A stretch of DNA of 49,863 nucleotides from a virus. The notes under the pieces are model-generated. The model did no database searches, was not told the origin of the DNA, and was given only the letters and a program-made list of their open reading frames with translations. Location of the stretch: the UHGV virus genome UHGV-1522688. One strand, written 5' to 3'. Position numbers and translations under genes: made by a program. Numbering within the stretch: position 1 is the first letter of the stretch; every line of letters begins with the position of its first letter. Positions 152 to 43,264 of this stretch are shown in pieces.

Positions 152-823
152 ATGTGTGGACGTTTTTCACAGTCAATGACGCGTGAAGACTATCTAGCCC
201 TTCTCGCTGAAGAAGTCGAACGAGACATTCCATATGGCCCTGAACCGATCGGACGTTTCAACGTTGCGCCCGGAACCAAAGTTCTGCTACTGAGCGAACG
301 TGATGAGAAACTCCATCTTGATCCAGTTATCTGGGGATACGCCCCCGGGTGGTGGGATAAACCACCACTAATTAATGCACGCTCTGAAACTGCGGCCACC
401 AGCAGAATGTTTAAACCACTCTGGCAGTATGGTCGTGCAATTTGCTTTGCTGATGGATGGTATGAATGGAAAAAGGAAGGTGACAAAAAGCAGCCCTACT
501 TCATTCATCGAGCCGATGGCCAGCCGATATTCATGGCGGCGATCGGCAGAACACCATTCGAACGTGGAGATGAAGCAGAAGGATTCCTGATAGTGACGGC
601 TGCTGCAGACAAAGGGCTGGTAGATATTCACGACAGGCGGCCGCTGGTTCTGTCACCAGAAGCCGCTCGCGAATGGATGAGGCAGGACATTGGAGGGAAA
701 GAAGCTACGGTAATTGCGGCTGACGGTTCCGTGCCGGCTGATAAATTTTCATGGCATGCTGTAATGCGTGCCGTCGGGAATGTTAAGAATCAAGGACCAG
801 AGTTAATAGAAACTATGCGTTGA
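152..823 (+). CDS. yedK: SOS response-associated peptidase YedK (SRAP family, abasic-site processing)
   Basis: 223 aa starting MCGRF (Cys2 nucleophile signature of SRAP/YedK); collinear with enterobacterial YedK as recalled. Confidence 0.9.
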   Translation: MCGRFSQSMTREDYLALLAEEVERDIPYGPEPIGRFNVAPGTKVLLLSERDEKLHLDPVIWGYAPGWWDKPPLINARSETAATSRMFKPLWQYGRAICFADGWYEWKKEGDKKQPYFIHRADGQPIFMAAIGRTPFERGDEAEGFLIVTAAADKGLVDIHDRRPLVLSPEAAREWMRQDIGGKEATVIAADGSVPADKFSWHAVMRAVGNVKNQGPELIETMR

Positions 824-2283: not shown

Positions 2284-3132
2284 TTGATTAAAACAGGTCA
2301 TGTATCATCTTCAGAGTCAACATATCGCCAACTGTCTATCATTCCATTGAGGAAAAGTATGTCATCAGAAAATTTTGTCACCTTCTGGCTCGCTAGAGCC
2401 GATCTTCCATACTTTCTTGAACCTCATGAATTTTACGTTTCGGAGGCCAAGCGTAGACTTCTATCGCAGTTTGGCGATTTAGAACAAGAAGCAGAAAGGA
2501 GGGAACAACAGTATTTGGAAGCTACCTCAAAATATTTCGATCCTGATAACGATGATCCAATGGCTGCCTACGAGCAAGCCTACCACGTGGGAATTAATTA
2601 TGTATGGTCGCTTCTGGAGATGCAAAATACCGTGTTGTTGGCATTAACGGCAGGAATGTACCACCAGTTTGATAAAAAACTAAGAGAACACACCATCAAA
2701 GAACTAAGTAACTGGTGCAAAAGAGAATTAATTACTCCCATGATCTGGAATATAACTTTCCATCAGCTTATTGATTTACTCGAATGGATTGGCCTCAAAA
2801 TCAATGGAACCGGATACGGAGAGAGGATCAAAGCCTGTAACTTGGTAGTAAACGTATACAAGCATGGGGACGGGCCTGCGCATCAAACACTATCATTCAA
2901 TCATCCTGAGTACTATCAACACCCTACCGATGTTCGAGGTACGCAGAACATACATGACCATGATGATTTACATGTATCAGAAGAGCAATTTGTAGAGTTT
3001 GCTGACGCAATAACTGAATTCTGGAAAGCAGTTCCAGAGAATTGCTATTACTCAGATCTCAAAGAAGAACCCAAATGGTTGAGTAAAGTCGTAACAAAAT
3101 TCGATAAAAAACAGAAGGGAAATAGGGACTAA
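2284..3132 (+). CDS. hypothetical protein, A+T-rich islet gene 2
   Basis: 282-aa ORF (alternative start MSSENF about 2359) directly downstream of gene 1 on same strand; no recognised family. Confidence 0.5.
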   Translation: MIKTGHVSSSESTYRQLSIIPLRKSMSSENFVTFWLARADLPYFLEPHEFYVSEAKRRLLSQFGDLEQEAERREQQYLEATSKYFDPDNDDPMAAYEQAYHVGINYVWSLLEMQNTVLLALTAGMYHQFDKKLREHTIKELSNWCKRELITPMIWNITFHQLIDLLEWIGLKINGTGYGERIKACNLVVNVYKHGDGPAHQTLSFNHPEYYQHPTDVRGTQNIHDHDDLHVSEEQFVEFADAITEFWKAVPENCYYSDLKEEPKWLSKVVTKFDKKQKGNRD

Positions 3133-3420: not shown

Positions 3421-3810
3421 TCACATCACTGGGCAGTCATCAAACTCCGCGTTCCTGGCATCATTAATGATGTACGTGATAACACCAAATATTGCGTGTG
3501 AAGAATTATAGCCATCACCGTCTTCTGGCAGCACTTCTCTTCTCCCGTTCTCCAGATTTATCAGGTGGGGCTGAGGGTGAGTTCGGTATCGCTTGATCCT
3601 GAATTCCCCATCTATCGCGCATATCAGCAGCGAGCCATCACAGGCTGAAAGCGACGCGTCCACAACAAGTAGTGCCCCCTGGATTATCCCTTCCCTGAAA
3701 TGTGAACACGATGCCCGCATGAAATAAGTCGCTGCGGGCTGGCTGATTAGCTGTTGATCGAGGGAAATCCTTGTTTCAACGTAATCACTGGCAGGTGAAG
3801 GGAAGCCCAT
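3421..3810 (-). CDS. UmuD'-like protein, encoded without the N-terminal arm (begins at the position equivalent to UmuD Gly25)
   Basis: From internal ATG with GGAGG SD: MGFPSPASDYVETRISLDQQLISQPAATYF... aligns with E. coli UmuD residues 25 onward ([29 protein letters not shown]); C-terminal 'AIDGEFRIKRY...FGVITYII' matches UmuD fold; Lys of the Ser-Lys dyad retained, GDSM motif diverged to CSHF. Confidence 0.8.
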   Translation of the reverse strand: MGFPSPASDYVETRISLDQQLISQPAATYFMRASCSHFREGIIQGALLVVDASLSACDGSLLICAIDGEFRIKRYRTHPQPHLINLENGRREVLPEDGDGYNSSHAIFGVITYIINDARNAEFDDCPVM

Positions 3811-3812
3811 GG

Positions 3813-4055
3813 CTATAGTCCTCCGTTTGGATTGAAAAGCTGAAAGGTACGGTTCTCCCCTTCCTGCGTTGATACATCGCGGAATGATGTCACATACCAC
3901 TCGATCCATTCGTTAGCCTGCTTCATCGTCCAGTTCCAGTTAACCTTGCTCAGTTCCTGGACAAACCGCTGTGTGGTGACGGTCTTCCGGCCATTAGGTT
4001 CTTGCTGTATCGAAGCATGCCAGGCCATTTCAATATCGCTGCGTCGTGGCATCAA
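3813..4055 (-). CDS. hypothetical protein, upstream partner of UmuD'-like gene
   Basis: 80-aa ORF ending 2 nt before the UmuD'-like ATG; not UmuC-like. Confidence 0.45.
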   Translation of the reverse strand: MMPRRSDIEMAWHASIQQEPNGRKTVTTQRFVQELSKVNWNWTMKQANEWIEWYVTSFRDVSTQEGENRTFQLFNPNGGL

Positions 4056-4094
4056 TTAACCCCTCTTGAATACCGGATAAAAACACAGTATAAA

Positions 4095-4114
4095 TACTGT
4101 ATATCCATCCAGTA
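4095..4114. promoter_or_regulatory. putative LexA box (SOS operator) in divergent promoter region
   Basis: TACTGTATATCCATCCAGTA: CTGT-N8-CCAG, same variant half-site as the E. coli dinI box as recalled; sits 17 nt upstream of the dinI-like start. Confidence 0.55.
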
Positions 4115-4130
4115 AAGATGACTACAAGAA

Positions 4131-4373
4131 ATGTTCGTGGAACTCGTTTATGACAAAAGGAATTTTGATGGGCTGCCTGGTGCAAAAGATATCATTCTGG
4201 GCGAATTGACCAAGAGGGTTCACCGGATCTTCCCCGATGCTGATGTTCGGGTTAAACCGATGATGACACTGCCGGCGATCAACACTGACGCCAGCAAGCA
4301 TGAGAAGGAACAGATAAGCCGTACTGTTCAGGAAATGTTTGAAGAAGCTGATATGTGGCTGGTTTCAGATTAA
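4131..4373 (+). CDS. DinI-family protein (DNA damage-inducible protein I-like)
   Basis: 80 aa; C-terminal '...EQISRTVQEMFEEADMWLVSD' parallels DinI '...QRISEILQETWESADDWFVSE'. Confidence 0.7.
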   Translation: MFVELVYDKRNFDGLPGAKDIILGELTKRVHRIFPDADVRVKPMMTLPAINTDASKHEKEQISRTVQEMFEEADMWLVSD

Positions 4374-13369: not shown

Positions 13370-14983
13370 ATGAATATTGTGCATTATGCAGCCATTGGAG
13401 CTGTAGCTTTCGTAGTTGTTCTAACAATTTTGGTGATAAACATCATTAAATTAAAGTCAGCCAAGGCTGATGCAGCAGAAAAGGCGGCAAAACTTGAGCG
13501 TTACGCGTCAATCACCAATGCTGAAACAGAAGCTGAACGAATCGTGAATGCAGCTAAGCAAACCGCAGAAGAGTTAATTATTGATTCGCAGAATAACCTT
13601 GACGAGGCAAAAGCTGAAGCAGCCAACACTATTGCAGCCAGTGAAAAAGATGCAAGATCTATAACACAGCGTGCGGAGGATATTCTATCAGATGCGCGTT
13701 TAGCAGCTAAGCGAATGAACGCAGAGGCGCTGACCGCTGTAGAAACACAAAGAGTCAAGCGTGCAGAAATTGAAAAACAGATTGATGAATTGCGTAAATC
13801 CTATCGTGAGAAAAAAATCACTTACGATGAGCTGACGGAAGCCCTGTCAATTTATAAAGATGATATGGAATTTGCTGACATGGGGTTCTATGCACCACAC
13901 TTCGATTTTGATACCTCGGCTAGTTTTCAGGATGCGATCAAGGCATGTCGCGAACGGCAAAAAAATCTGCTACGTGACAAAACTGAATTTGGCGCAATAC
14001 ATTGCCCTACTGAATGGACGGTTGGCGGCTCTAAAAGTGAAGGTCGGAAAATGACCACTCGCGGCATTCAGATGACAGCACGTGCATTCAATGGTGAGTG
14101 TGATGCAGCTATTGCAAACTGCACATTTAAAAACGTTTATCAAATGGAGCAAAGAATTTATAAAGCCTTTGATGCCTTGAATAAGATGAATGAGGTTAAC
14201 CAGATTTACATCAATCGTGCTTTTTTAGATTTGAAGCTGGATGAACTTCGACTTACACATGAATATCGTTTGAAAAAACAAGAAGAACGAGAAGAACAAC
14301 GTGAAATCCGCGCTCAGATGGCTGAGGAGAAGCGAGCTCAAGCCGAAATTGATCGTGCACTTCGAGAGGCTGAAGATGAAGAACGCCGCGCCCAAAAAGC
14401 GTTGGATAAAGCCCGAAAAGAAATGGAATCGAAGCTAGCCCAAATGACAGCTGAGCAAGTTGAGAAACACCAAGCGAAGGTATCCGAATTAGAACATGCC
14501 TTAGAAGAGGCATTGTTGAAAGGCCAAAAAGCTCTTTCTATGGCTCAACAAACTAAACGCGGCCACGTGTACGTTATCTCTAATATTGGTTCGTTTGGTG
14601 ATGATGTTTTTAAAATAGGAATGACACGTCGACTTGACCCTCAAGATCGAGTGGATGAACTGGGTAGTGCATCAGTCCCATTCCTGTTCGATGTTCATGC
14701 AATGATTTTCAGTGAAGATGCACCAACAATGGAAAACATGCTCCACCAGCGTTTCAATGAGCAACGCACTAACCTAGTTAATAAGCGTAAAGAGTTTTTC
14801 AATGTAAAATTAAGCGATATCAAAGATGCTGTGTTTGAGATCGCAGGTAAAGATGTAGATTTTATCGAAACAGCAACTGCTCAGCATTATTATGAAACAA
14901 AGGCAATTCGTAAGCAGAAAGCGGATATCATTTCAGTTGTTCCTCAAGAGGAAAAACTACCTAAATTTGCGGACGCAATATAA
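13370..14983 (+). CDS. membrane-anchored coiled-coil protein with DUF4041-like region and C-terminal T5orf172/MUG113 (GIY-YIG-like) domain; candidate defence/exclusion factor
   Basis: 537 aa; N-terminal hydrophobic helix (AIGAVAFVVVLTILVINII); long Ala/Glu/Lys/Arg-rich helical stretches; C-terminal 'GHVYVISNIGSFGDDVFKIGMTRRLDPQDRVDEL...VPF...LHQRFNEQRTNLVNKRKEFF' matches T5orf172 signature as recalled; opposite strand to the tail operon; A+T-rich. Confidence 0.7.
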   Translation: MNIVHYAAIGAVAFVVVLTILVINIIKLKSAKADAAEKAAKLERYASITNAETEAERIVNAAKQTAEELIIDSQNNLDEAKAEAANTIAASEKDARSITQRAEDILSDARLAAKRMNAEALTAVETQRVKRAEIEKQIDELRKSYREKKITYDELTEALSIYKDDMEFADMGFYAPHFDFDTSASFQDAIKACRERQKNLLRDKTEFGAIHCPTEWTVGGSKSEGRKMTTRGIQMTARAFNGECDAAIANCTFKNVYQMEQRIYKAFDALNKMNEVNQIYINRAFLDLKLDELRLTHEYRLKKQEEREEQREIRAQMAEEKRAQAEIDRALREAEDEERRAQKALDKARKEMESKLAQMTAEQVEKHQAKVSELEHALEEALLKGQKALSMAQQTKRGHVYVISNIGSFGDDVFKIGMTRRLDPQDRVDELGSASVPFLFDVHAMIFSEDAPTMENMLHQRFNEQRTNLVNKRKEFFNVKLSDIKDAVFEIAGKDVDFIETATAQHYYETKAIRKQKADIISVVPQEEKLPKFADAI

Positions 14984-36409: not shown

Positions 36410-36616
36410 TCACCCCCAGACCTTTTGCCGAAAGGTTCTTGGTGTACGCGCCGGATGCTCGCATTCAGGTAATTTTGCGCTAACAGTCCAGGTGATATTG
36501 TCGCGATTCAGGCTGCGTTCTACCGTGGCGCCGCGGCGTCGGTAACAGGCAATAAGTTCGTCGGCCTGCTCGGTTGTGCATTCGTGATGGTGGAACCAGG
36601 AAAATTTCATCGCCAT
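36410..36616 (-). CDS. hypothetical small nin-region protein
   Basis: 68 aa from ATG overlapping upstream stop (TGATG coupling). Confidence 0.45.
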   Translation of the reverse strand: MAMKFSWFHHHECTTEQADELIACYRRRGATVERSLNRDNITWTVSAKLPECEHPARTPRTFRQKVWG

Positions 36617-37218
36617 CACCCCGCAAAACTCATAAGCTGCGCAGCGGCGTTTTCCGCTTCTCGCTGAGTCTTGAATGCCCGGGACAATACCCAGCGCCAC
36701 AGAACATCGAGCGCGGCTTTGTAAAGTTGCTGGAACTCGGTTTCGTCCATGTTGGCGAAAGCTATGCTGCGGGGGTGTTTACGAAGAGTTCCGTCAGGTA
36801 GTTGAATTGCGTCGTAGTGGCCGGCCTCGACAATTACCCAGGCACGGTACGCGTCAAAGGATTTACACAGGCTGATCCCATTGGTAACTCGGCGACTGGC
36901 TACCTGCTCCAGATACTGCTCGGCAGCATCCAGCAGTGCGCCTTCGTTTCCACCAAATGCCGCGAGGAATTTAGCATAACCATTTACGAGCTTACGCTCA
37001 TTGCTGGATATCGCCCCTCCAGTAGGTTCCCAGTATTCAAACCCGAGATTCAGGAGCGCAAAAAAACGGCGATGGAATGCGGGATTCCTCACCTGGCGAA
37101 ATTCGGCTACCAGCACGGCACCGAGTTTGATTTTTGATTGCAGAATATCGCTGGTCTCCGGCGTCGCGGGGATCAGGATTCCTGATGACTGCTTGATGAG
37201 TTGTAGTTCGTGCGCCAT
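36616..37218 (-). CDS. nin-region protein (DUF1367-like?)
   Basis: 200-aa ORF; family guess from memory only. Confidence 0.45.
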   Translation of the reverse strand: MAHELQLIKQSSGILIPATPETSDILQSKIKLGAVLVAEFRQVRNPAFHRRFFALLNLGFEYWEPTGGAISSNERKLVNGYAKFLAAFGGNEGALLDAAEQYLEQVASRRVTNGISLCKSFDAYRAWVIVEAGHYDAIQLPDGTLRKHPRSIAFANMDETEFQQLYKAALDVLWRWVLSRAFKTQREAENAAAQLMSFAG

Positions 37219-37300: not shown

Positions 37301-37522
37301 TCAATTTTTAGAAGTCATCTCCCTTACAACTTCCATGATGGTTTCTTTGGACCAGTACAATTCATCTCTGGATAATTTTCTGTTAGTTACAGAACCGGCC
37401 TTGGCTGAAAGGATGTAGCGTTCATCCGCTGCAAGTCCGAAAGACAAAAGCTCCCGACCTTTCCCATCGGTTATGATCACCCGTAAATTATCAGCAAGAT
37501 CTGATTGGGCTATATCTGCCAC
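37301..37522 (-). CDS. hypothetical small protein
   Basis: 73-aa ORF. Confidence 0.4.
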   Translation of the reverse strand: MADIAQSDLADNLRVIITDGKGRELLSFGLAADERYILSAKAGSVTNRKLSRDELYWSKETIMEVVREMTSKN

Positions 37523-37631
37523 TTAATCCCCCTGAGCGACATACAGACGCGATTAAAGAATGTCGGCAGCAGCATCAAAGGGATACACATTTTGGTATTC
37601 TGATAAATGCGCGCCAGCCTTAAGCGCAATT

Positions 37632-37865
37632 CTAATAAAACCAGTCGTCAGCGCTTTCCCAGGTATCCTGGAGGATTGATTCAATTTTCTTTTTATCGTC
37701 CTTGTCACCGCCAAAAACACTTAACCCATCCGACCCGGCACGGCGGATTGTGAGCCTGCAATTGTCATAGTGATCATTCAGGCGCTTAAGCAATTCTTTC
37801 TCCAGTGCAGGAACCGCGCCTTTAGGAAGTTCTTTCATACGATCAATGGTTAATTCAACTTTCAT
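37632..37865 (-). CDS. DinI-family protein (second copy)
   Basis: Start at ATG with GGAGG SD: MKVELTIDR...; C-terminal 'KKKIESILQDTWESADDWFY' nearly identical to DinI 'QRISEILQETWESADDWFVSE'. Confidence 0.8.
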   Translation of the reverse strand: MKVELTIDRMKELPKGAVPALEKELLKRLNDHYDNCRLTIRRAGSDGLSVFGGDKDDKKKIESILQDTWESADDWFY

Positions 37866-37883
37866 AATGGCCTCCAATGCATA

Positions 37884-37903
37884 TACTGTGTTTTTATACA
37901 GTA
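37884..37903. promoter_or_regulatory. LexA box upstream of second dinI-like gene
   Basis: TACTGTGTTTTTATACAGTA: perfect CTGT-N8-ACAG, 19 nt upstream of start codon. Confidence 0.65.
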
Positions 37904-38172
37904 TACCTATGAGAGGAAATGATCAACGTTTTAAGAGCACAAATTGTTAATTTCCTGTCAGGAATAAAAAAAGAAAACCCGCCGTAGCGGGTTGAATTCG
38001 TGATGGTTTATAAAGATGTAATTTCTTTCTACTGACAAATCTATGGCTACCCATTTACCCTCAAACGTGAATACAGCATACGCGCCGACATACTGATTAT
38101 CTCTTTGTGGATCGGGATATGATCAACCTTCTGCCAGAACGTAAAACTTGATGCCGCTGACAAATAAACAGC

Positions 38173-38433
38173 TCATTGTTTCTTCTCGTTCTGGGCTGCC
38201 ATATCCAGATAGCGCGGGTCGGATGCTCTCGGTAATGTCAGACTTTGCTCGCGATAGTAGCGCACACGCTCCATGAAGTATTCGCGGAGATGCTCTGGCT
38301 GATCACGGGCTTCCTGTTCAGCGATAACCGGCATGTTCAGGCGCTCTTTGTCCGCTACTCCGGATGCTGCAAAGTCAACGTTAACCTTGTCCTGCTCTTC
38401 TTTCGGCTTGGCTGCAATGTTATGGTTGGACAT
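38173..38433 (-). CDS. hypothetical small acidic protein
   Basis: 86-aa ORF. Confidence 0.4.
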   Translation of the reverse strand: MSNHNIAAKPKEEQDKVNVDFAASGVADKERLNMPVIAEQEARDQPEHLREYFMERVRYYREQSLTLPRASDPRYLDMAAQNEKKQ

Positions 38434-38523: not shown

Positions 38524-38928
38524 TTACTTTAATTTATATATTAAACAATCCACAATATCCAAACCATTAACCATACTATTTGAAAGTCGAACTTTGCTAT
38601 TTTCAATAGAGAATGCTCCTTTCATCATTTTATAAATAAAAGCAGACTCTCCTTTAGCTTCGATTGCTTCAAGTGGTATGGAATGGTATTTATTTGATCT
38701 ATTATCTCTATTGATTTGACTTATAAGGCTATAAACGAATGTAGGCCCTTTCTCCTCAAGATCACTTATTACCAAAATATATTTCCAAGAAAACATTTCC
38801 CCATAAAAAAACCACATGGCAGCGGATAAAGCTACTCCTTTCTTCTCTAACTCTTTCATTAGAAATTGGCCAGAATTTTCCATAGAGGTCGTCATTGAGT
38901 GACCTATTACCAGTGACTTCTTACCCAT
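38524..38928 (-). CDS. hypothetical protein (A+T-rich cassette, downstream gene)
   Basis: 134-aa ORF overlapping the upstream gene by 22 nt. Confidence 0.5.
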   Translation of the reverse strand: MGKKSLVIGHSMTTSMENSGQFLMKELEKKGVALSAAMWFFYGEMFSWKYILVISDLEEKGPTFVYSLISQINRDNRSNKYHSIPLEAIEAKGESAFIYKMMKGAFSIENSKVRLSNSMVNGLDIVDCLIYKLK

Positions 38929-39329
38929 TGCAAAACTCCAGATTGATTATTCTCAGCTGCTTCGATGAGCTGCTCCGCCATAGCCCGACTGATAGTAGTT
39001 TCGTAGCGGAGTTGTTCACTCCAATCCTTCATAACAGTCCAAAATATTTCAAACTGCCCATCCTGGGCAGCTAATTGTCTATGTGATAGTTGTAGGCTCG
39101 CCACCTGCATGAGCTTTGTTAGATCATGAACATGTGAGTCCATGGCTAACTTCTTGTCAGGAAATTGAAATGCCGTCACATTTTTTGCTATACATGCTTT
39201 AAGAGCGCACTCAACTGCGTATCCGCAGAGGTAGTATGCACCATGATATAATCCATTCTGTAACAGACATTTTGCTTCCGTTAACCTTATACCAGTTAAA
39301 ACTTCTAGGTCAGATTTATTCATTTGCAA
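38907..39329 (-). CDS. hypothetical protein, possibly HEPN-like helical domain (A+T-rich cassette, upstream gene)
   Basis: 140 aa; 'GAYYLCGYAVECALKACIA' resembles first helix of HEPN-type domains; canonical Rx4-6H not clearly seen. Confidence 0.45.
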   Translation of the reverse strand: MQMNKSDLEVLTGIRLTEAKCLLQNGLYHGAYYLCGYAVECALKACIAKNVTAFQFPDKKLAMDSHVHDLTKLMQVASLQLSHRQLAAQDGQFEIFWTVMKDWSEQLRYETTISRAMAEQLIEAAENNQSGVLQWVRSHW

Positions 39330-41968: not shown

Positions 41969-42508
41969 TCATACAACCCCCAGCATCAACTGCACCATCT
42001 CCATCAGCGGACCGGTTAAGCCAGGGTCAACGCGGTACATCTCCACGATCCCCTCGCTCAGCTCTTTCAGCTTCTGATGACGCGGCGCATCCATTGCGAC
42101 AGCTATCTTCGCTTCGCTGGTTTCCTTCTCCATACGTGCCAGGCGAGCCATGATGTTGTCTTCTGGCAGCAGGCGGTTGCGGTATTCAATCGGCAGAACT
42201 GCGAGGATTGCGGGAGTCAGCTGGCGAACGTTCTCGCGGTACCGCTCGCTGTTGAAATGGTTATCGAGGAAGCGGAAAAGCTTCTGGCGCTTTCGGCAGA
42301 GATCATCAGGGAAAGTGATGTCGTCACCACCCTGCGCCTGGTACTCTTCGATGATCAGAGCAGTAACTACGTCCTGACCATCAGCACCAGCCCAGGAGCG
42401 AACCGCATCACGAATATCTTCGTGGCTCGGCCCCCTGCGTGCTTGAGCGCGATTTATCATTACCCCTTGAGTAATATCGCTATCATTCTGATAAGTAAGT
42501 GTCTGCAT
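41969..42508 (-). CDS. YdaT-like (DUF1019) protein in cII position
   Basis: 179 aa; 'VVTALIIEEYQAQGG...LTPAILAVLPIEYRNRL' resembles Rac YdaT as recalled. Confidence 0.55.
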   Translation of the reverse strand: MQTLTYQNDSDITQGVMINRAQARRGPSHEDIRDAVRSWAGADGQDVVTALIIEEYQAQGGDDITFPDDLCRKRQKLFRFLDNHFNSERYRENVRQLTPAILAVLPIEYRNRLLPEDNIMARLARMEKETSEAKIAVAMDAPRHQKLKELSEGIVEMYRVDPGLTGPLMEMVQLMLGVV

Positions 42509-42519
42509 GATTAAGCCTC

Positions 42520-42738
42520 CTAACGTGGCAAACCATCTGTTGGGTTTGGGTAAATATCACTACGGACCTCATGCGGAGTGATTTTCCAATCGAGTAAACG
42601 GCAAATTGGAAGCACGCGGTGCGCAGGAACCTCGTGGTTTAACCAAAGGCTGACCGCTTGAGACGTAGTGCCAAGATTTTTCGCTATTTCTGTTTGCGTC
42701 ATAACCGCACAAACACGTTGTTTAATGGAATTTGTCAT
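42520..42738 (-). CDS. Cro/YdaS-like HTH regulator
   Basis: Start taken at MTNSIKQRVCAVMTQTEIAKNLGTTSQAVSLW; HTH; divergent from repressor. Confidence 0.7.
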   Translation of the reverse strand: MTNSIKQRVCAVMTQTEIAKNLGTTSQAVSLWLNHEVPAHRVLPICRLLDWKITPHEVRSDIYPNPTDGLPR

Positions 42739-42847
42739 ATGCAACCCTCGGATATTGAAATTCAAGATTACAACATGAAAAAAATATTTTCAATCCTGAA
42801 TGAAAATAATCTTTGCAATGCGGAATGAAAGGCTACCTTGTAGAATG
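42739..42847. promoter_or_regulatory. immunity-region divergent promoter/operator with inverted repeats
   Basis: Palindrome TTGAAATTCAA (42755-42765) and TTTTCA-N8-TGAAAA (42787-42806) between cro-like and repressor genes. Confidence 0.4.
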
Positions 42848-43264
42848 GAAGACATGAAAAAAGCACCCAACGAAGCGTTTGCCTACCGACTTCAGCTCGT
42901 CAGAGATGAGTTCGGTTGGAACATGTCAGATATAGCCCGGAGAGCGATGGTTACTCCCCAGGCAGTGCAGCAATGGGCCAAAGGAGAGTCAGCTCCAAGA
43001 GGTGAGCGCTTAAAGCGTCTCGCTGCAGCTGCTGGAAAGCCCGAACATTGGTTTTTCATGCCACCAAATACCGAAGGTGAAGATGCTGGGGTGCATGAGC
43101 CACCGCGGCAACTGGATGAAAAAGAAATCGCACTGCTTACGTTGTTCAATCAAATGCCAGAAGCTGAAAAGCTACGTTTGATAGTGCATGCCAAGGCTAC
43201 CTTGAGAGAGCTTGATCTCCTCAAAGATGATGTGTCTAGCATCATTCAAAGTATTCAGAAGTAA
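42800..43264 (+). CDS. CI-like / XRE-family prophage repressor
   Basis: 154 aa (alternative start 42845); HTH 'WNMSDIARRAMVTPQAVQQWAKGESAP'; divergent from cro-like gene. Confidence 0.75.
   Translation: MKIIFAMRNERLPCRMEDMKKAPNEAFAYRLQLVRDEFGWNMSDIARRAMVTPQAVQQWAKGESAPRGERLKRLAAAAGKPEHWFFMPPNTEGEDAGVHEPPRQLDEKEIALLTLFNQMPEAEKLRLIVHAKATLRELDLLKDDVSSIIQSIQK

Follow-up and report, generated by a model that had tools for sequence, protein, structure and literature searches.

The window is the whole 49,863-nt stretch of the UHGV virus genome UHGV-1522688 that was analysed, and its features are collected in Table 1. It holds a complete-looking prophage with an integrase, RecE/RecT, O/P-like replication genes, Q, lysis genes, a terminase, a portal protein, a major head protein, a tape measure protein and J. 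A dinI homologue is located in the nin region of this prophage. A LexA box, a putative promoter and a rho-independent terminator lie upstream of dinI, and a small ORF and an irsA homologue follow it on the same strand. The sequence comes from ENA as a contig of a metagenome. The closest genome match of the prophage was Citrobacter murliniae. An origin as an E. coli prophage was ruled out, with the best complete-genome matches covering at most 42% of the right half at 83–90% identity.

Table 1. Position and properties of the features of the SOS operon, the repressor region and the second DinI locus in the window.
Feature	Position	Strand	Properties and basis
dinI homologue	37632..37865	-	77 aa; opens the operon; ATG to TAA
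Ribosome-binding site of dinI	37875..37871	-	GGAGG
LexA (SOS) box	37884..37903		Coding strand reads TACTGTATAAAAACACAGTA; pattern match, conservation
Putative sigma-70 promoter	37900..37926	-	-35 TTGATC (37926..37921), 15-nt spacer, -10 TATACT (37905..37900)
Rho-independent terminator	37976..37993	-	AACCCGCTACGGCGGGTT followed by a T-run; terminator scan
Conserved 109-nt spacer	37523..37631	-	Pairwise identity
Small antirepressor ORF, GftA family	37301..37522	-	73 aa; GTG start; PHROG 4847
irsA homologue (DUF1367)	36616..37218	-	200 aa; third in the operon
Prophage repressor, GtgR/DicA type	42854..43264	+	136 aa; HTH only
YdaS-like cro	42765..42520	-	Divergent from the repressor; Pfam search
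YdaT-like gene	42508..41969	-	Divergent from the repressor; Pfam search
msgA-like DinI paralog	4131..4373	+	80 aa; Pfam DinI 4.1e-21
Bidirectional SOS control region	4071..4114	.	Box A TACTGTATATCCATCCAGTA (4095-4114), degenerate box B TACCGGATAAAAACACAGTA (4071-4090)
HumD-family gene (pre-processed UmuD'-like)	3421..3810	-	129 aa
orf79	4052..3813	-	Precedes the HumD gene

The nin-region dinI encodes a protein with the sequence MKVELTIDRMKELPKGAVPALEKELLKRLNDHYDNCRLTIRRAGSDGLSVFGGDKDDKKKIESILQDTWESADDWFY. The protein matched the Pfam family DinI (PF06183) over profile positions 1–63 of 63, with an E value of 8e-26 and a score of 90.6 bits (cutoff 24.2). E. coli DinI (PDB 1GHH) matched it with an E value of 2.8e-17, and the C-terminal TWESADDWF was identical. 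The preliminary description was therefore right in calling the product a DinI homologue, but its length of 78 aa has to be corrected to 77 aa. The likeness to chromosomal DinI of E. coli (PDB 1GHH, 7YWA) comprises the fold family, 45% identity, the shared C-terminus and a LexA box in front of the gene, whereas E. coli dinI is monocistronic and the gene here is phage-borne and the first in an operon. The NCBIfam equivalog NF007893, which represents chromosomal DinI, scored 89.7 bits with the nin-region protein and 41.8 bits with the msgA-like paralog of the same prophage, both below its cutoff of 111 bits. These scores indicate that the two genes are members of paralogous subfamilies and not orthologues of chromosomal dinI.

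In the cryo-EM complex, the contact residues of DinI hold loop L2 of RecA and the basic patch of the groove (PMC9926225). The contact residues of E. coli DinI are L13, L21, W71, W77 and F78, which form a pocket, and E24, E69 and D76, which form an acidic patch. In the alignment, seven of the eight were identical in the nin-region DinI (L13, L21, E24, W71, D76, W77 and F78), and E69 was replaced by D. The nin-region DinI is very likely able to bind RecA filaments, most likely in the filament groove, because the contact residues are kept.

The palindrome CTGT-N8-ACAG upstream of dinI (37884-37903) reads TACTGTGTTTTTATACAGTA. Its arms are perfect, its spacer is GTTTTTAT, it follows the E. coli-type pattern, and it overlaps the inferred -10. 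When up to three mismatches to the 20-mer consensus TACTGTATATATATACAGTA were allowed, the window gave two matches and 100 shuffles gave none; each match lies immediately upstream of one of the two DinI-family genes. The bare 16-mer CTGT-N8-ACAG was found twice against an expectation of 0.58, and 8 of 100 shuffles reached two. The box at this position is more than a chance match. The preliminary description placed it 19 nt upstream of dinI; the box itself is genuine and conserved, but the gap to the ATG measures 18 nt from the edge of the 20-mer and 20 nt from that of the 16-mer core.

The -10 of the putative sigma-70 promoter overlaps the LexA box. Its hexamers were assigned by inference and are separated by a short spacer of 15 nt, and the site was not listed by a generic promoter scan of the window. 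The TTGA of the -35 was invariant among 57 distinct upstream sequences of relatives. The terminator, a GC-rich hairpin that precedes the LexA box, is also carried by Gifsy-1 and mEp237, and it serves to insulate the operon from the early-right genes lying upstream.

The 73-aa ORF behind dinI showed 75% identity over its full length to STM2621.1n of Gifsy-1 from strain LT2, the GUG-start ORF between dinI and irsA, that is, gftA; a GTG start was found in both. In an alignment of six homologues of this antirepressor family, 40 of 73 columns were invariant. The third gene was 93% identical to STM2620 of Gifsy-1 and matched Pfam DUF1367 with an E value of 1.5e-96, and the DinI of the window was 66% identical to DinI of Gifsy-1. 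A terminator scan between dinI and the antirepressor gene gave no credible terminator. By megablast, the region matched sequences beside the nin regions of Gifsy-1, Gifsy-2 and coliphage mEp237, and the upstream DNA could be aligned to Gifsy-1 through the terminator, the TTGA, the box and the ribosome-binding site. The Gifsy-1 record annotates the same order of a DinI homologue, a 73-aa hypothetical protein and STM2620.

The 136-aa repressor was 53% identical from end to end to GtgR, the repressor of LT2 Gifsy-1 and Gifsy-2, and matched DicA weakly. In Pfam it contained HTH_3 alone, and an S24 domain was absent. In the Pfam and NCBIfam profile search of the window, the only S24-domain protein was the product of the HumD-like gene. 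The route to induction by self-cleavage of a repressor is thus predicted to be unavailable to this phage, because the sole S24-domain protein detected is a HumD homologue. The 136-aa repressor is the presumed target of the antirepressor.

With the antirepressor as query, public genomes and IMG/VR yielded 84 loci, which belong to Citrobacter, Enterobacter and Leclercia or to viral contigs of uncultured origin. dinI was followed by the antirepressor gene in all 84 loci, and irsA came next wherever the locus extended far enough. In 81 of the 84 loci, a CTG-N10-CAG box preceded the ATG of dinI by 18–19 nt. The CTGT and ACAG arms were invariant among the 57 distinct upstream sequences, while the spacer of the box was variable. 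Two of the remaining loci (L015 and L017) had another upstream junction with neither terminator nor box, dinI being located directly after the upstream ORF, and the third (L022) had a 1-nt insertion in the box spacer that resulted in CTGT-N9-ACAG. LexA control is not universal in the family, because these three relatives are without the canonical box.

Coliphage mEp237, which is viable and sequenced, carries the corresponding genes gp48-gp49-gp50. Its gp48 DinI was identical to the DinI of the window at 76 of 77 positions, and its LexA box and terminator were identical. The slot behind dinI of mEp237 differs in holding an unrelated small ORF of 82 aa (gp49), a second cassette family. The antirepressor slot is occupied by two unrelated families, one of 73 aa that starts with GTG and one of 82 aa, seen in mEp237, in which the start is TTG or GTG. 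Judged from start codon and position, the 82-aa family is probably of the GfoA/GfhA type.

The Gifsy prophages have been studied by experiment. They contain a LexA box that is preceded by a terminator and adjoins a dinI homologue (Lemire, Figueroa-Bossi and Bossi 2011, PMC3121763). In their LexA-regulated operon, dinI comes first, followed by a small antirepressor gene with a non-canonical start and by an irsA homologue (PMC3121763). Induction of Gifsy was blocked by lexA3, became arabinose-dependent when PBAD was put in place of the box region, and was brought about by gftA alone, while the short Gifsy repressors stayed uncleaved (PMC3121763). The dinI genes of Gifsy-1, -2 and -3, whose box lies 19 bp away from the ATG, were induced 23-, 14- and 4.6-fold by nalidixic acid, respectively (PMC8072944). 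Gifsy-1 of strain D23580 was non-inducible owing to one SNP in the -10 of PdinI-gfoA, and its repair restored phage production (PMC5322425).

All parts of the Gifsy-type operon were found in the window: the terminator, the LexA box, dinI, a small ORF with a non-AUG start and irsA, in this order, together with an HTH-only repressor. The locus resembles dinI-gftA/gfoA/gfhA-irsA of Gifsy-1, -2 and -3 in gene order, in the distance from box to ATG, in the HTH-only repressor family and in the YdaS/YdaT-type partner region. It differs from them in the host lineage and in the sequence of the box spacer. The distance from the module to the replication genes is also larger, about 2.3 kb in the window compared with 1.3 kb in Gifsy, because extra genes have been inserted, namely a theta homologue, a HEPN pair and a pyrophosphohydrolase gene. 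The theta homologue (38173-38433, minus strand), which corresponds to the theta subunit of DNA polymerase III (HolE), is located immediately upstream of the terminator of the SOS operon. The HEPN pair (38524-39329, minus strand) consists of overlapping genes for a 140-aa HEPN-like protein and a 134-aa partner, inserted where the replication genes end and before the SOS operon is reached. The HEPN-like protein matched Pfam HEPN weakly and the PADLOC candidate PDC-M28A at 2.9e-09, and the two genes may be a toxin–antitoxin or a defence pair.

Tum of phage 186 and the split tum of Fels-2 and PSP3 are also LexA-controlled antirepressors associated with a DinI-like sequence. However, Tum of 186 is a fusion with the antirepressor part first, while the genes are separate here, with dinI first and an antirepressor that is unrelated in size. 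Instead of a single polypeptide of about 146 aa with a DinI-like C-terminal half, the window contains separate ORFs of 77 and 73 aa with a spacer of 109 nt.

We consider it highly probable that the feature comprises the control region and the opening gene of an SOS induction operon of the Gifsy type, carried by a lambdoid prophage that appears to be complete. Anatomy, homologies and conservation were taken from the window and its relatives, while LexA binding, co-transcription and binding of the antirepressor to the repressor are predicted from the work on Gifsy prophages of Salmonella. In the lysogen, host LexA would sit on the box overlapping the -10 and start region and keep dinI, the 73-aa antirepressor gene and irsA silent, and the upstream terminator would shield the operon from read-through. 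After DNA damage, active RecA would lead to self-cleavage of LexA and the operon would be transcribed. The antirepressor would then bind the short HTH-only repressor, which is without a protease domain and is predicted to be non-cleavable, the repressor would come off its operators and lytic growth would begin. The co-expressed DinI most likely sits in the groove of host RecA filaments, where it probably tunes RecA activity and would not be needed for induction. The LexA control of dinI proposed in the preliminary description agrees with the box at this gene, but the box heads dinI, the antirepressor gene and irsA, and the 73-aa antirepressor would be the product essential for induction.

Three other explanations were weighed against this operon. 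The palindrome could be a chance occurrence, with dinI read through from the early-right operon, and a bare 16-mer is indeed expected about 0.6 times per window. This explanation is hardly credible, since the 20-mer consensus was absent from the shuffles and both of its matches precede DinI genes, position and arms were conserved in 81 of the 84 relatives while the spacer drifted, and a terminator is located just upstream. It is unlikely that dinI is a stand-alone SOS-inducible gene, served by the box on its own account, whose product alters the coprotease activity of RecA and sets the frequency of induction. L13, L21, E24, W71, D76, W77 and F78 are kept, with only E69 changed to D, and the box is immediately upstream, as such a gene would have them; yet a conserved antirepressor gene comes next with no credible terminator between, and RecA coprotease cannot act on a repressor without a cleavage domain. 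Furthermore, non-polar deletions of dinI in Gifsy-1 and Gifsy-3 caused no significant change in the level or rate of induction (PMC3121763).

It is very unlikely that the module is a non-functional relic, inherited through mosaicism, whose antirepressor no longer fits the repressor of its own prophage and could act in trans on other prophages. Lambdoid mosaicism is evident, and two unrelated antirepressor cassettes were found behind the same spacer. Gifsy antirepressors act on some non-cognate repressors and fail on others (PMC3121763), and the repressor of the window is just 53% identical to GtgR, so that the pair, with 75% identity to GftA on one side, may or may not be cognate. Against a relic, the ORFs are all intact, the prophage looks complete, and repressor and antirepressor are both of the GtgR/GftA lineage and not of mixed lineages. 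The Gifsy-type operon has been known as a system since 2011; the window holds another copy of it, with no biology beyond the Gifsy paradigm.

The preliminary description also reported another, diverged DinI paralog with a LexA-type box of its own, and this was confirmed. BLASTP of the two DinI paralogs gave no pairwise alignment, and their kinship was visible through profiles only. That they lie at opposite ends of the genome is a loose statement, as one is located after the tail fibre genes, and the other belongs to the nin region and is about 12 kb away from the end with the integrase. Nor is the pair special to this prophage, because mEp237 and Gifsy-2 have the same pair, which is standard in this phage group. 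In mEp237 the msgA-like DinI is gp25, which is located past the tail fibre gene and has its own LexA box. The msgA-like branch was found past the tail fibre genes in phi80 (dinL), HK140, HK225, mEp390, mEp237, phiKO2 and Gifsy-2, where the gene is truncated, and at least 575 relatives were found in IMG/VR. Four of the eight RecA-contact residues were changed in the msgA-like paralog (L21I, W71F, D76M and F78L). Both types of DinI gene are listed as SOS-induced in Salmonella, msgA being induced 3.4-fold (PMC8072944).

Box A (TACTGTATATCCATCCAGTA) ends 16 nt before the ATG of the msgA-like gene. A rightward promoter, TTGAAT-17-TATAAA, is directly followed by box A, and a leftward promoter-like sequence, TTTACT-18-TATACT, overlaps it. 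The control region is part of a divergent SOS cassette (3421-4373) with orf79 and the HumD gene read leftward and the msgA-like DinI gene read rightward; a umuC-like gene was not adjacent. The HumD-family protein matched NCBIfam NF051876 (HumD) over positions 1–129 of 129 with 223 bits against a cutoff of 120, and PHROG classed it as UmuD-like. The protein opens with MGFPSPASDYVE and starts at the position of the UmuD' N-terminus. The cassette thus pairs a HumD-family gene, as known from phage P1, with a DinI gene of the Salmonella MsgA type, and both are associated with LexA-type boxes.

The HumD-like gene neighboured the msgA-like gene in 52 of 54 IMG/VR loci with enough flank, and the region upstream of the msgA-like gene was conserved in 56 of 57 distinct sequences. 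This region occurred in two versions, one resembling that of the window and another that has two good LexA boxes in tandem. In the window, the nucleotides before the msgA-like ATG (4115-4130) read AAAGATGACTACAAGAA, compared with AAAGAGGCAATAAGCA in nearly all relatives, and the Shine–Dalgarno sequence of the msgA-like gene of the window appears to be weakened. To our knowledge, from a search of the literature that was not exhaustive, the divergent pairing of HumD and msgA-like genes at the tail-fibre end of lambdoid prophages has not been described as a unit.

Several other genes were found in this part of the window. A SRAP gene (152-823, plus strand; YedK-like, SOS response-associated peptidase) is located at the left edge of the window, in the prophage or in host flank, and would be a fourth DNA damage-related gene beside HumD and the two DinI genes. 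Two cargo genes past the tail fibre genes are read rightward. The product of the one at 1054-2124 matched the PADLOC protein PD-T7-5 (E 3.9e-102), and that of the one at 2284-3132 had no match in Pfam, NCBIfam or PADLOC. A gene for a 537-aa protein with DUF4041 and T5orf172 (13370-14983, plus strand) is inserted on the opposite strand in the tail gene cluster, and in PADLOC its product matched PD-Lambda-1, a defence protein (E 5e-201).

The 109-nt spacer that separates dinI from the antirepressor gene was conserved above both flanking coding sequences. Its mean pairwise identity was 0.876 among 66 distinct relatives, compared with 0.743 for dinI (0.54 at third codon positions) and 0.766 for the antirepressor gene (0.625 at third positions). 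The same spacer precedes the two unrelated families, the GftA-like 73-aa ORF and the mEp237 gp49-like 82-aa ORF, and homology ends at the ribosome-binding site. Diverged Klebsiella phages retain two blocks of it, UCCCUUUGAUGCUG and GCGUCUGUAUGUCGCUCAGGGGG. The sequence UCCCUUUGA is able to pair with the Shine–Dalgarno region of the antirepressor gene, and this helix was present in the MFE fold and in the consensus fold.

The fold of the spacer was no more stable than that of shuffled sequences (z = 0.09). In RNAalifold, the helix occluding the Shine–Dalgarno sequence was kept in both cassette types with zero compensatory changes, and pair counts were equal to those of the shuffled control (94.8% and 95.4%, respectively). 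A structure that occludes the Shine–Dalgarno sequence is compatible with these results but is not supported by them. The window as a whole gave no matches to Rfam at gathering thresholds and none in a tRNA scan, and phage records hold no annotation of the spacer. Small ORFs in the spacer were rejected on either strand, as 1-nt indels break the frames in relatives and a Shine–Dalgarno sequence is absent. A counterpart of the RNA from chromosomal dinI was also rejected, because phage dinI is not followed by a terminator; that RNA has its own terminator and a Klebsiella-specific active region. The spacer could act as a brake on translation, as a site for a protein or an RNase, or as a conserved mosaic junction at which cassettes are exchanged.

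It is conceivable, though doubtful, that the spacer is an undescribed cis element, for example an anti-Shine–Dalgarno hairpin (UCCCUUUGA/UCAGGGGGA), or that the two DinI paralogs divide labour. With such a hairpin, the hairpin and the GUG or UUG start would hold back translation of the antirepressor, and only a strong or sustained SOS response would commit the phage to lysis. With a division of labour, RecA would be the target of the nin-region DinI, in the standard way, and the msgA-like DinI, changed at four of the eight contact residues, would act together with its HumD partner. The conserved spacer is the sole part of the locus that might repay an experiment.

For the Gifsy-type operon as a whole, the arrangement described here suggests that this prophage is probably induced via LexA and the antirepressor and not via cleavage of its repressor. 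The route of induction bears on which antibiotics and stresses would mobilise the prophage together with its cargo, the defence genes PD-Lambda-1 and PD-T7-5 matched in PADLOC.
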